DNA of 64,000 nt from Massalongia carnosa. Lineage: Eukaryota. This document shows, piece after piece, positions 55,410 to 63,383 of the stretch. The stretch spans positions 372,001-436,000 of the forward strand of contig OZ287071.1 of NCBI GenBank assembly GCA_965645245.1. Reading direction: 5' to 3'. The translations under genes and the position numbers were made by a program. The notes beneath the pieces were generated by a model, which worked only from the letters and a program-made list of their open reading frames with translations, ran no database searches and was not told where the DNA came from. Numbering within the stretch: position 1 is the first letter of the stretch; each line of letters opens with the position of its first letter.

Positions 55410-55575
55410 CGTGCGTTCTTTCCTGCAGCTACACTGCGCTAAAGTACCATCGCCTGGAACCTCGGGGCAAAGATGTTGTGACCAAACATTCGCGTGCGTT
55501 CTTTCCTGCAGCTACACTGCGCTAAAGTACCATCGCCTGGAACCTCAGGGCATGGGCATGTACAAACATTCGCAT
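55410..55575. repeat. 83-bp tandem duplication
   Basis: CGTGCGTTCTTTCCTGCAGCTACACTGCGCTAAAGTACCATCGCCTGGAACCTC occurs at 55410 and 55493. Confidence 0.9.
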
Positions 55576-57268: not shown

Positions 57269-58160
57269 GATAAAAAAAAAGCAATGTACTTTACTACTGT
57301 ATGCATAAGTTTCAATCAAATTTTATGAAATAAACCTTTATATCTTGATGACTATCGTGATCATCAGGGATATTTTCTGATTTTCAAAAATAATCTTGTT
57401 GTCTTTAATTGAGATTTAAATCATCCATCGCGAAGGCATACACTCCCGCACTAGTATTTATTCTAACTACAAAGTATTAGTAAGCAGGAGCATCAAATTT
57501 TGGTTTACCATTAGAGATTGCTTTTCACTATTCATTAAATTCTGCAGCTGTTCCTTTCGAAACTAGACTAAAATATGAGAGTAAAGGAAGAAGAGCGAAA
57601 AGTGAGTGGAGTTGCGGAAATCAAGAGGCGTTCTGTCAAAAGGGGTTAAATAGAAGTAGATGGAACCTAATATGATTAGTAGAGACTTAAGGTCTCGGAG
57701 GACCTACCGTAAATGTAATTCTGATCCAAAACCCACCCATAAACGGTTAGTTCAAGCCAGCATGCCGTTAGGTGTTTTACCAAACCACTAAGCTAACCAC
57801 GTTCAGAGGTTTCCACCGCGGACATTAAGATTCCGGGAAAGAGGAGGCTGCCTGGAGTATGCACCATGGCACCATCCACGGCCCCTAAGCTTCTATTTCT
57901 TGTTTCAGATGCGGCTCTGTTGCGCGTTGCGCTAAGCCGGGGTGGTGAGTAGGGCTAGGATATGTATTAAACATGTTTATTGACTAACCCGATCGGGAAG
58001 TGTTTAATACGTGTCAGTTGGCCCAACTGACAGACACAGGGATTAGCTACAGGGGGGGAGGGGGGGGGGGCGGAAGAAGCGGGAAGATAGAAAGTGGGGA
58101 AAAGATACTTTATTTTGTTAGCAATTTGCGTACAATTTTATGTATCTCCTACTCTACTAG

Positions 58161-60188
58161 CTAGGTGTTTATCCAAGCTCTCGTCGCATCACCAAATATC
58201 GTTTGACTCGCCGGTCTTTTCGATGATGACATGGACGCATCAGATAAAGAGATCTCTTCTTGCAGTAGTCTATCCTCCATCTCACAAAGATCCGTCTCAT
58301 TGATGTCGATGCCAGCAAACTGAAGCTTGCTTTTGAAATCTGTTGGCCGATTAAGAGTACGCTCATTCATGTAAATAAACATGAGTTTATCGACATTGAT
58401 GGAATGTAGAGAGTTCCGAATTTTGGTCATGATCAAATTCATGACCGACCAATTTCTTTCTGCCAGCACCGAATTAGCAGGCTGCATTATTACCTTTCTA
58501 GCTATGTTGCTGAGATCAAAAGCAAAGCTTCTGGAAAAGTTCCAAAACAGCTCCGAATCCGTTTGATATGTCCAGCATTCGGAGGCAGGATAAAAACCGT
58601 CTTCTTGATTTCGAAAAGAAAGCCATTGCTTCATTGCCGACTTTGCTTCTTCAACGTTCAGATATTCAGCAAAGAATCTATGCATGATAGAGAAAAATGC
58701 CTGCGACGTGGATACTCCAATCACCTGAATGTTATGATTCTGAGGAACCAACAGAGCTGCTACCACATGAAGTTCAGTTATTTGACTGAGATATCGATCT
58801 TCCCAAACTATCTCTGCAATGTGATGCAAATCCATCTCAGAATCTTCATCCTCTTTGGCCATTGTATATAGGTGAGATCGAAGCCTGTTCCAATTGGCAG
58901 TCACCGCGTACAGTTTATGCCCCTCGGCCTCGGACATGTATTGTGCTTTATGTATGGGATCAAGAATTTTCTGTATGATGGCCAGCTTTTTCCAAAACGA
59001 GAAGTCGTTGACGAATGTTCCTAAAGGATGACTTCTGCCCTGATCAATGCCCGGAGCATTTTGCTGAAAATAATCCAAAATTGCCTGCTTGCTTTTTAGC
59101 ACTGAGTTCAAAAGGCCTACAGTCGTACCCCATCTGGTCAAAACGTTGAGAATCAGTGATTGACGTTGATTGTATGCCTTTGAAAGTTATAAATTAGCAA
59201 TGACGTTTTGATGCCGCATTGAAATTTCATTCCTACTTACCTTCATCTGAAAATTCCATAGAATGGCCAATTCTTTATTCGATCCACGAAAAGCTATCAC
59301 TATCGACTGAGCTTTTTGCATGATGTCTGCAAAAAAAGGAAGCTTCAAAATGTCTCCCAAAAGAAGCTGTAAACCGTGACTGTCGCAAGGAACGAAAAAG
59401 ACGTGTCTCATCTCAGGAAACTTTCGAATTTCAGACCACATGGCCTTCATAGTAGAGCAAGTATCTGTTCCTATACAATTGACTCTCCAGAGCTGATTAT
59501 TGGTCGCTTCTCTACAGCCTTTTATCATCCACTCAGCTTGAACAGCTGCAGTCATCGTCTCAGCGATGCCGGCCATTGCTTTTAAATGAAAGCCCCCCCC
59601 TCGAGAGGTAGCTGATGAAGGGACATGACAACAGATATTAATAACCCGTTCCTTCTTAATGTTGGCCGTTTCGTCGGTAAAGAAGTTGAGATAACTGCAG
59701 GCATCTAACTGCTGATTTACTTTCAGTTTAACCGTCTCATAGGCGTCGTCCAATAATTTCCCGCCAACGAGCTTATGATGTGGAGGTTTATATCCAGGAT
59801 GCAGTGCTTGATGATGAGCAATCACATAGGGATTTTCGAAGTGGTTAAACGGAAGATTGGTCATAAAGACGGACATTGCAGCAGCGCGATGAGCATGCGC
59901 AACTTGGGCTTGATTTAAGGGACGAATCAAAGGGGTGATGGGCAATTGGATCAAAGATTTGCTGCTCCTAGAAGACGTCTCTTGCTGTCTTCTTTCTTGC
60001 ACTTCTTGAAAGGCATTGCATGTCTGCAAATGCTGCTGACCCCTGGTAGCAACTTTGGCAGACTGATATCCGCAATGCGTACAACGATGCTGAGGGTATT
60101 TCATGCCTTCAATGATGACATCAACGAAATTCTCATCTACCAATGCATTTTTCGGTCGACCGCCAGAATGTCCAGATTGTCGAGACAT
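58161..60188 (-). CDS. hAT transposase (about 654 aa), apparently intact
   Basis: Exons 60188-59241 and 59177-58161 join in frame. It has a BED finger (CTHC..HLQTC), FTDET, GTDT, CDSH (CxxH), TRW and the C-terminal dimerisation motif AERNWS. Confidence 0.9.
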
Positions 60189-60286
60189 GATCAATGTATG
60201 TGTTGAGAATTGAGCCGAGATGTCTGCTTATTAATAAGAGCACTAACCGAATGCGGATCATGCACTAAGGGTTATTTCGGCCGTGG

Positions 60287-61613
60287 CACGCGGGTGACAA
60301 AATAAATTGCAACGTGTAAGCGAATTTACCCCCCCTTTTTTATTCAAATTTTCATCTCATCATCAACCATCATCTGCATAGCTGATAAAATTCATCTAAA
60401 TTACATGAGATCAATAACCAGTCATCGCCCCCTTTGCATCTTTTACCTCTTTCAATATTTTGGGCATGGATAACACCCTTTCATTGATAAATTCTTGACT
60501 GACTCGAGCCCATCCCTCCCTAATCAGCTGCTCCAAACTTGCATCGTCCCAATGAGGAAATTTACGAACATGCTGCTTTGCGGGCTGCCAGCAATTTTCA
60601 ATGGGAGCTAGATCAGGAGATGAAGCACAATTGAAATAGTGCTCTAAATCGTGATCTAACTTTCACTTTTTGACCGCGTTTCGTGTCTTGCCCGTGCCAT
60701 GACCAGACTCTCCATCTTCTTCAAGTACGAAGTCATCTCCACGCTCCAACCAGGGCTTGACGACGGGATCAAGAATAGCGTCAATATACACCTGATGAGT
60801 CATTTTTCCATTGCTATTGCTGGGCACATCGTAGAAGTAGATATCCGACTTGAAATTGTAACCAACTGCTGCCCAGCAGTGCTTTCTTTTACGATCTTTC
60901 TCAGGTGGTGCATCACGATGCTGAATACAATCCCAACGATATCTTGTTCCGGGCTTACGAATGATTCGTAACTGTCCTTCAGGCCCGTAGCCAAAATGAA
61001 TCCCATCGCTGAATCGTACGCGATGCCAGTCTTCGGACCGAGGATATTTATTTAACATAACTGTAGCAAATTCTTCTCTTCTTTCTTCTGATGCCATTGC
61101 CAGCCACCCTTTGACACAGGCTAGATATTTATGATAATTCAAGGCAGCTGTAAGAGTTCTCTTCATTGTACGTCCCATCACGTCGGCCCCAATCTCCTGT
61201 GCTAAAGCATCCCATGTGTAGCGTTTTCCTTCCAATTGTAGATCTTGATCCTGCAGAATGTGATCTGCCTCCTTCAGCTGATCATCACTAATCTTTCGCT
61301 TTCGACCCCGAGTCTCAACGAGAGAAGAATTGTGACGTGTGCGAGAAGAAGCTCCGCTTTTGATGATGTTATAGCCCGCGCGCTCGGCCACGCCAAATTC
61401 CTGAAAAATGGCCCGTGGATCGAATGGAATTGCATGTGAGATGAGAAATTGATAAGCTCCTTGAACTTTGGCCTTTGTGGGAGTATCATAATGAGGCTTT
61501 TTGGGTCGAGATATTGATGATGAGATAAAAAGTTGAAAAAAAGGAGGGTGTTTTGATGGGGCATTCAGGGGTAAATTCGCTTACACGTTGCAATTTATTT
61601 TGTCACCCGCGTG
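60287..61613 (-). mobile_element. Tc1/mariner(IS630)-like element, 1327 bp, nested in the hAT
   Basis: Perfect 46-bp TIRs CACGCGGGTGACAAAATAAATTGCAACGTGTAAGCGAATTTACCCC at 60287-60332 and 61568-61613. Flanking direct repeat CGTGG at 60282-60286 and 61614-61618. Confidence 0.95.
60411..61514 (-). pseudogene. Inactivated Tc1-like DD38E transposase
   Basis: One frame reads HYDTPTKAKVQGA..GRKRK..RFSD..VLEEDG.SGHG..SPDLAPIENCW. There is an in-frame TGA at 60663-60665 (probably a former TGG), and ATA at 61514 where an ATG would be expected. Confidence 0.88.
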
Positions 61614-63383
61614 CGTGGCAACACATCACTAATCATTCGAGATGTCATCCATCTGCCAGCTAAGGGAGGCAAAACGGAATATATTGTTAGATGGTGAGGC
61701 TACCATTGGTTAGATGGTCAGGCTACCATCAATATAGGCATCCATCGTGATTCATACGGGTGTCTACCAGGCACCTATGGAGGTGCCTAACAGGCAGCTA
61801 TGGGAAGCCTACAGCATTACTGCTGTGTGACTGCTACAAAAGCAGGTAGATAGCCCACATAGATAATAACCCTCAATGACATGTATGCTTCTTATTTGCC
61901 CTACTTCCGTTTCATGATCAATAGCCTGGTGTTTCAACAGTATGTATAGAGATAATAGGAAGGTACCTCAAATTAGGTAGAAATGTCTAGTAATTTCAGG
62001 TATTGATCTATGAGAAAGATAAATTTGACATGCTTAAGTAATATTATACCATAAAGACAGGGTCCAAGTCTGCACGTGACGTATAATACGTGTCAGTTGG
62101 CCCAACTGACGTATTTTTCCTAGCCCTAGTGGTGAGGCAGCTACCTACAGCTAACTGCTTTGGGAGGGTTTAGAAGTTCCGGGTTGGGATGCCAGGAAGT
62201 TCAAGGTGGGTAGGGATTGGGGCGGGGTTTTCGGTGTCGGGGAGGGACTTTTCTCTATGGGATGATGGCGACCAGGCTTCATGCATATATTTGGCAGTCT
62301 AATGTTGAAAGTTAAAATAGCCGAAAGGGGTTTAGACTGGGGTTCAAGTAAGCCTTCCGTATAATCTAAATCTCGAAAGCTTTTGAAGGAATAGTTGAAT
62401 GATGAGTTTCTTATTTCGTCGCCGGCGAAACATTTTATTGTTCTTATTCTTATCACCCTTGAAAACCTAAAAGAGTTTTGTTCGGACCTCCTGTTTTCTA
62501 CAACCCTTCGCATTTCCAACCTACAGCCAGCGGAGCAAGAAATCTCTCGTTGTTTTAAGGTTTAACCTAATTTGATTGAGAAAAGAATATCTTTTATGGA
62601 CACGGTCGAGAGATATGATACGCTAAACAGTTATTTCAAAGGTTAAGAGAAAATGACATTAGGTGGCATGCTTCATGAAAGCGAATGAGAAGGTTAGGAT
62701 AGGCGATCACACAAGAGATAAATGGAATGTGTTAAAGAGCGCAAGGAGAACACGGGCATTGGGGGTGGCCCTCGAAATGACCTGTCACTTGGAAAATTTT
62801 ATGGGCGAACAAGGTTGAGATCAAAGAGCACGAAAGAAATCCACAACAAGGATTATGTTTACCCCCAGCAACTTAAACGGGTTGAGAGGGAAGAATAAGC
62901 CGGCTTATATATTTGCTCCTAATCACCCCCCACCAAAACCCTGTAAATCAGCCAACAATCATCGCTATAATGCCTGAAGAACGAGGCGCCATACGGATGC
63001 AGCAGTTACTAGAACCGCTATCATGAATCACTTCCTTGGATTTGAAGTCGGACCAGAAAAGCAGCGGCAACACTCGGAAACGGGGGGGTCTAATTAGAGA
63101 ACCGTGAGGTTTTCGTGATATAAATACATATATACTTCATCCTATCGTTAAGGTAGAAGGAGCAAAGGTACGGAAGGATTTTTCCAAACGCACTTTTCGT
63201 AGAACTTTCCATAATGGAGTCTTGGAAGGTACCGCTATTCACAAGTAAAATATAAAATACATATGCAACGGGGTTTGAGACTAAGAAAGCTTTCAATACA
63301 AGGCTTGTTAGATTTTGATGTTGGTTGAGGATAGGGGGTGAAGAAATATAGTTGTGATAGAAGGGAGAGGGGCGCATGCATGT

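Follow-up and report, generated by a model that had tools for sequence, protein, structure and literature searches.

Insertion of Tc1/mariner transposons has been described as occurring 'strictly at TA' (PMC5481204; papers are cited here by such numbers, for the parts of their text that were accessible), and duplication of TA through a 2-bp stagger counts as one of the group's defining traits, with a structural model that is TA-specific. In Mos1, a transposase dimer joins the 3' ends at TA with a 2-bp stagger in a bent target, the adenines are flipped and trapped on the V214 loop, and W159, R186, F187 and K190 hold the distortion (PMC5481204). In Sleeping Beauty, H187, P247 and K248 influence target choice (PMC8934666). 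Here we analyse a stretch of 64,000 nucleotides from Massalongia carnosa (assembly GCA_965645245.1, contig OZ287071.1, positions 372,001 to 436,000 of the forward strand; hereafter the window) that carries a Tc1-like transposon flanked by a GC-rich 5-bp target site duplication (TSD). We hold with high confidence that it represents an autonomous fungal Tc1 sub-lineage, with mostly 37 to 38 residues between the second catalytic aspartate (D) and the glutamate (E), whose target geometry has changed.

Duplication length can depart from 2 bp among IS630-Tc1-mariner (ITm) elements, as it does in Fot and Fot-like elements, Sailor, Tc4, Zator and TBE. Tc4 duplicates TNA, and the TSDs of Zator and TBE are 3 bp long. 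Fot-type pogo elements have TAA and TAAA TSDs (PMC7386202) and Sailor has TATA (PMC8533490). The Fot and Sailor duplications are fixed TA-anchored words of 3 to 4 bp, whereas the present family has 31 different 5-mers in 33 sites. Intruder (DD38E) and TRT/Mosquito (DD37E), compared by description only, have the same or a similar D-to-E spacing; Intruder was found in animals only (PMC7731502), PMC8533490 counts it with the families that duplicate TA, and the common spacing probably arose independently.

Like the Tc1 family (Sleeping Beauty, Tc1, impala-type), the element is about 1.3 kb long with short terminal inverted repeats (TIRs), and it encodes a transposase of about 360 amino acids (aa) with two helix-turn-helix modules, a DDE domain and the motifs FSDE and SPDL.PIEN.W. 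Unlike that family, it has a variable GC-rich 5-bp TSD in place of TA, and its clade has CAC, CAA or CTC termini rather than CAGT, a D-to-E spacing of 37 to 38 rather than 34, the motifs EEDGDSGHG and FN..SPDL rather than QDNAxxH and WP..SPDL, and an acidic clamp-loop tip that is at least 2 (mostly 3) residues longer. Its mode of action and its descent are those of Tc1, but it does not use TA; we thus class it as a variant lineage and not an ordinary member. Transib elements have a 5-bp TSD, a CAC start and palindromic target preferences such as cCAWTGc, and they measure 3 to 4 kb with a transposase of about 700 aa unlike those of other superfamilies (PMC1131882). The window family has in common with Transib/RAG1 the 5-bp TSD, the CAC start of its own termini and palindromic target preferences; unlike Transib, it is 1.3 kb long and its protein is less than half the size. 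The likeness is convergence and not membership, because the 367-aa protein is folded like Tc1/mariner transposases and the starts CAA and CTC also occur among relatives. A reading of CACGCGG...ACAAAA as resembling a recombination signal sequence was dropped, the spacer being 3 bases and the termini variable.

A preliminary description of the locus, made from its sequence, had reported perfect 46-bp TIRs starting CACGCGG, CGTGG on both sides with TA at neither junction, and a spacing of 38 residues from the second D to the E. All of these were borne out, as listed here.

60287 to 61613, minus strand: whole transposon, 1,327 bp, with at least 45 copies or fragments in the searched genome (G000)
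60282 to 60286, plus strand: left TSD copy, CGTGG, 5 bp
61614 to 61618, plus strand: right TSD copy, CGTGG, 5 bp
60287 to 60332, plus strand: left TIR, 46 bp, starting CACGCGGGTGACAAAA
61568 to 61613, minus strand: right TIR, 46 bp, perfect partner of the left
60338 to 60366, plus strand: inner inverted repeat arm, 29 nt, 90% complementary to its partner at 61514 to 61542, possibly a second transposase-binding site
60411 to 61514, minus strand: Tc1-type DD38E transposase gene, 367 codons, inactive in the window copy
61007 to 61005, 60716 to 60714 and 60599 to 60597, minus strand: catalytic codons D170, D267 and E306

The element is a cut-and-paste transposon with 46-bp CACGCGG inverted repeats, whose pairing can extend to 47 nt since the outer G/C of the TSD is complementary by chance.

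We searched genome G000 (52 Mb, 25 contigs) for further copies, the DNA search scoring 40 of 247 candidates and a TIR pattern search giving 75 matches. Of 45 loci fetched, 41 two-ended copies were counted and four one-ended loci were excluded. Tabulating their flanks, as the preliminary description had proposed, gave TA at 0/41 left and 0/41 right junctions and an exact 5-bp TSD in 33 of the 41. For lengths 1 to 10 the numbers of exact duplications were 13, 2, 0, 0, 33, 0, 1, 0, 0 and 0, and shuffling the end pairing 2,000 times yielded a mean of 0.15 5-bp matches compared to the 33 observed. The 5-mers are 65% GC against 45% in the flanks. A duplication that is variable in sequence and fixed at length 5 is most simply explained by a 5-nt cleavage stagger, which we infer from the duplications; the preliminary description had suggested that the stagger may be altered.

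The copy in the window lies within a repeat that resembles a long terminal repeat (LTR), and 16 of 16 fetched copies of this host repeat have a single CGTGG at the empty site, which reads TCGGCCGTGGCAACAC. This agrees with the empty site predicted earlier, except that the predicted host was a hAT element. Contigs from three public runs (three studies) skip exactly 1,332 bases at the site, equal to 1,327 + 5; they are probably other LTR copies and not the same locus. Median divergence of the copies from the majority base is 0.6% and the transposase frame is unbroken in 15/41, which indicates that the family moved recently. Base changes among the 41 copies are dominated by C>T/G>A (161, with 74 at CpA), a weak sign of a bias resembling repeat-induced point mutation and nothing further.

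The 5-bp duplication is a trait of the whole clade and not of one locus. Relatives in G000 at 53 to 78% aa identity have CACGC ends and an exact 5-bp TSD in 21 of 31 two-ended elements (41 examined), and a further G000 set at 46 to 54% identity has one in 10 of 12 (20 examined). The 5-bp elements of G000 form 11 clusters at 85% nucleotide identity. In metagenomes we collected 80 loci at 40 to 63% identity, 45 of them with both ends and flanks and 37 distinct, the ends being called by a rule blind to duplication. An exact 5-mer was found at 20 of the 37 distinct sites and TA at none; the termini were CAC in 16, CAA in 15 and CTC in 6 (starts other than C[AT][CA] lay outside the pattern searched for). 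For comparison, four other DDE_3 families of G000 serve as a control, with TA on both sides in 20/20 paired elements and a 5-mer in 0/20 (22 examined), and a fifth has TA at 11 of 11 single ends. The earlier suggestion of a fungal ITm lineage with altered target selection is therefore upheld by about 11 clusters in G000 and by other assemblies, set against TA at 20/20 in the control.

Two side observations concern TA-flanked elements. One is an ITm family of more than 3 kb (L199-L211) with ends CAGTCGAC/CTGTCGCT, in which the transposase frame is split and the opposite strand has another frame of more than 630 codons. The other is a 2.6-kb DDE_3 element (L212, 565-3139) whose TIR starts CACCCG; being TA-flanked, it shows that a CAC start alone is no predictor of a 5-bp duplication. 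The ends of family L194-L198 were looked for and not found.

A profile search returned 470 clusters (50% identity) at E up to 1e-30. Named homologues are all ascomycete (Pyrenophora, Clathrospora, Bimuria, Botrytis, Pseudogymnoascus and Orbilia, known from proteins and not flanks), include Pyrenophora tritici-repentis and Botrytis deweyae, and point to a fungal host. We take the first three genera to be Dothideomycetes and Botrytis and Pseudogymnoascus to be Leotiomycetes. No relative was confirmed in the viral contigs, prokaryote genomes and plasmids searched, and none of four viral matches to the TIR pattern had a transposase match. One P. tritici-repentis protein of the clade (P0327, 679 aa, about twice the usual length) is annotated as an HMG box protein; it is either a fusion or a mis-called gene and passes the 'HMG box' name to its cluster.

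To characterise the transposase we used the protein of an intact copy (L006; 367 aa, triad D170, D267, E306), in which the D267-E306 spacing is 38 and not the 34 of DD34E/Tc1. It matches Pfam DDE_3 (E 2.6e-9, 37.5 bits against a cut-off of 28.6) and an IS630 model (E 1.6e-14, below that model's cut-off), and the Pfam scan gives no RAG1 family. Compared with PDB sequences up to E 10, it hits Sleeping Beauty alone (E 1.4e-10), which is also the only significant PDB match for the alignment profile. The predicted structure (mean predicted local distance difference test score, pLDDT, 78.9) aligns with Sleeping Beauty at Z 20.1 (216 residues, root-mean-square deviation 4.8), with SETMAR at Z 18.9 and with Mos1 at Z 18.8 (192 residues, deviation 2.5); integrases, the next fold class, reach Z 10.5 or less. 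Foldseek agrees, with Sleeping Beauty best at E 2.8e-10, and no Transib or RAG1 structure is among the matches listed in the fold searches, where a family could go unlisted. Sequence and fold both class the transposase as Tc1-type and not Transib, and a single transposase gene lies between the TIRs, as in IS630-Tc1-mariner.

These results sustain the Tc1/IS630 assignment made earlier, although the window copy itself is dead: compared to the intact copy it has lost the start codon, has an in-frame stop at 60663-60665 and has an altered FSDE. A Pfam search with the truncated window protein gave no match, whereas the intact copy does match. Among 163 clade proteins the spacing is 37 in 57, 38 in 39, 41 in 8 and 34 in 7, and the triad is retained at D170 in 142, at D267 in 147 and at E306 in 142. 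The intact protein also has CxxC motifs at 130-133 in the linker and 193-196 in the clamp loop, and C130/C133/C193/C196 may form a zinc site joining the two. The pair is common in the 5-bp clade and also present in the 2-bp families L214 and L260; we therefore rejected it as the cause of the TSD switch.

The main tree has 36 rows (LG+G4, catalytic and C-terminal region) and is rooted on two bacterial IS630 proteins. Thirteen rows with a 5-bp duplication and four proteins with unread flanks share one branch, with bootstrap and Shimodaira-Hasegawa approximate likelihood-ratio test (SH-aLRT) values of 100/100. The successive outer branches are P0257/P0258 (99/97) and L260 + P0297 (97/94), followed outward, with weak support, by the TA families L214, L272 and L274 (88/79). 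A 53-row mixture-model tree with 21 5-bp rows agrees (SH-aLRT 99). In these alignments, which lack named Tc1, impala, Zator and Intruder sequences, the 5-bp elements thus form a single clade that lies within a set of fungal Tc1 families with 2-bp/TA duplications. The nearest 2-bp family (L260-L267 and L280-L298 of G000) is DD41E, and the first bases of its TIR, CAAGGTTGGGTGAC, resemble clade ends such as CAAGTGGGTGAC but have two more bases before the GGGTGAC block. The bases outside 19 of its ends are TA in 12, TT in 3, AA in 2, CA in 1 and TG in 1, with TT on both sides of one copy, suggesting a loosened 2-bp target.

To profile the target itself we took 84 distinct sites, 63 of them in G000 and 21 in metagenomes, all selected for having an exact 5-mer. 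GC makes up 65% of the duplication, the central base is A or T in 75%, and the flanks have, symmetrically, T at -3 in 57% and A at -2 in 62%. TA occupies 58 of 168 half-sites against a window background of 4.9%, and is found on either side in 51/84 sites and on both sides in 7. Loosely, the consensus reads TA-N-SCWGS-N-TA, and the same profile was seen separately in three site sets (the 41-copy family, the sister families and the metagenomes).

Comparing residues in 21 clade rows with seven two-base families and 11 other outgroups, we found H173, H212, N235, K237, E265, D269-S270-G271 and N295, the last replacing a conserved W, to be among those fixed in the clade and rare outside. In our own alignment H173, three residues after the first D, appears to correspond to Mos1 W159, and N235 and K237 to lie in the loop aligned with the Mos1 TA trap; in an alignment with Sleeping Beauty, S270 and G271 fall opposite P247 and K248. 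The clamp-loop tip has 12 to 28 residues, 2 to 6 of them acidic, in the clade, and 9 to 10 with 0 to 1 acidic in the others. The remodelled surfaces would be those facing target DNA, a correlation only. Most likely, by analogy with Mos1 and Sleeping Beauty, a transposase dimer would bind both TIRs and excise the element, and the two 3' ends would be joined to opposite target strands by attacks 5 nt apart instead of 2; gap repair would then copy 5 bp. With less certainty, the 'bend, flip and trap' reading of TA would have been lost; a bent, GC-rich target would instead be held by three parts of the protein, namely the clamp-loop tip, which is longer and acidic, the NGK loop and the start of helix 2 (D-S-G), and TpA steps 2 to 3 bases outside the duplication would be favoured.

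Several points weigh against the explanation proposed here. An exact 5-bp match is missing in 8 of the 41 copies, in 10/31 and 2/12 elements of the two further G000 sets and in 17/37 metagenome sites. Of the eight, two (L009 and L011) carry a tip change of 1 to 2 bases that displaces the 5-mer (L009, shifted one base by hand, still counts among the misses), two (L005 and L012) match nearly, and the flanks of L013, L015, L020 and L038 are unrelated; four metagenome misses are visibly internal end pairs. Tip indels, mismatches, swapped flanks and the four mis-called ends explain some of the misses and not all. The stagger is moreover read from repaired products. In a first tree, of 83 rows, L257, an IS630 branch of great length, fell inside the clade (L257, L198, P0224 and other long rows were dropped from the 53- and 36-row trees), and with the TSDs of the nearest proteins, P0152, P0257 and P0258 (Pseudogymnoascus and Xylona relatives), unread, the switch could lie on more than one branch. 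Two of these, P0257 and P0258, already have H173 and D269. The clamp loop is poorly modelled (pLDDT below 50 at 178-186 and 190-200), for which reason the residue account stays correlative.

In a separate observation, L012 and L013 (G000:C13:562704-578421) are inverted copies 13 kb apart with mismatched flanks, one flank being the reverse complement of a flank of the partner copy, and L015 has one flank in common with L012 in opposite orientation. This pattern suggests recombination or rearrangement between copies.

One alternative explanation is a shorter stagger of 2 or 3 nt with extra bases from repair, or true ends placed one base outward, which leaves a 3-bp TSD, the GCAC parse also offered in the preliminary description. 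The window locus itself fits that parse, the 1,332-base skip fits either, and TA-based 3- and 4-bp TSDs are known in pogo (PMC7386202) and Sailor (PMC8533490). However, the 3-bp parse fits 11 of the 41 copies compared to 33 for the 5-bp parse, and it fits those 11 because the outer bases of their 5-mers are complementary. Exact matches peak only at length 5, with 0, 0 and 0 of 41 at lengths 3, 4 and 6; extensions made by repair would vary in length, so the single peak argues against them, and we consider a shorter stagger very unlikely. Even less probable, in our estimate, is mobilisation in trans by another 5-bp enzyme, either Transib/RAG-like or a 5-bp hAT, with the Tc1 gene as cargo. CAC termini with GC-rich 5-bp TSDs are indeed Transib hallmarks (PMC1131882), and 5-bp hAT5 elements are cited in the reference list of PMC12730594. 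Yet in each family the TIRs enclose only a Tc1 gene, diverged from those of the other families and with an intact triad, the length of the TSD tracks the transposase tree, and the termini vary as given above. Transib is also reported absent from fungi in the accessible text of PMC5751038, and the accessible part of another survey places fungal Transib only in soybean rust.

Alternatively, the 5-nt stagger and its clade may be as we propose and the lineage with its 5-bp TSD already catalogued in Repbase, Dfam or another paper, which we regard as possible though rather unlikely. The clade is common in well-studied ascomycetes (among them P. tritici-repentis and B. deweyae), and in 2016 there were already 148 entries for fungal Tc1/mariner elements in Repbase (PMC5751038). 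Against this, a literature search covering few subscription journals, and not Repbase Reports, Repbase or Dfam, found no description of a 5-bp-TSD Tc1 lineage. The accessible text of PMC2836289, PMC7325037, PMC5751038, PMC11544213, PMC5718144, PMC10085805, PMC12730594 and PMC3538342 has no such element; the first of these reports two Paracoccidioides families without definable TSD, and five motifs of the element are absent from six readable files of PMC7325037. As far as accessible, ITm papers of 2016-2021 give only TA, TAA, TAAA and TATA TSDs, and the main text of the P. tritici-repentis genome paper, in its accessible portion, contains neither 'TSD' nor 'target site' (PMC3538342).

On balance we favour the view that this is an undescribed, family-grade ITm lineage of at least three Pezizomycotina classes that went from a fixed 2-bp stagger at TA to one of 5 nt that tolerates varied sequence, thereby coming to resemble the Transib/RAG signature by convergence, and that the relaxed 2-bp sister family in G000 with TA or AA/TT flanks may mark an intermediate step. 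If so, the residues that set stagger length in a DDE enzyme could be mapped by swaps between natural relatives. A recently active 5-bp clade on a Tc1 scaffold makes stagger and target determinants testable with close TA relatives as controls, and offers a Sleeping Beauty-like enzyme without the TA requirement. Classification rules based on TSD and terminus would miss such elements or label their non-autonomous derivatives Transib-like, which matters in a genome with about 11 clusters of them.

Around the transposon the window shows a triple nesting at 58002-62128, with the Tc1-type element inside an LTR-like repeat inside a hAT element.

60201 to 61939, strand not set: LTR-like repeat TG...CA, about 407 bp without its insert, split by the transposon
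60196 to 60200 and 61940 to 61944: the host LTR's own duplication, GTATG
58002 to 62128, minus strand: outer host, a hAT element (frames matching DUF659 and Dimer_Tnp_hAT) that the LTR interrupts; its left boundary is approximate

The repeat of about 407 bp, with its TG...CA ends and GTATG duplication, is read as a solo LTR. In eleven hAT copies the sequence passes without a break from the side of 60208 to that of 61940. The hAT was rejected as immediate host, its copies being without the insertion site and the LTR lying between it and the transposon. Elsewhere in the window, two 60-bp direct repeats at 55410-55552 are 98% alike and separated by 83 bases.
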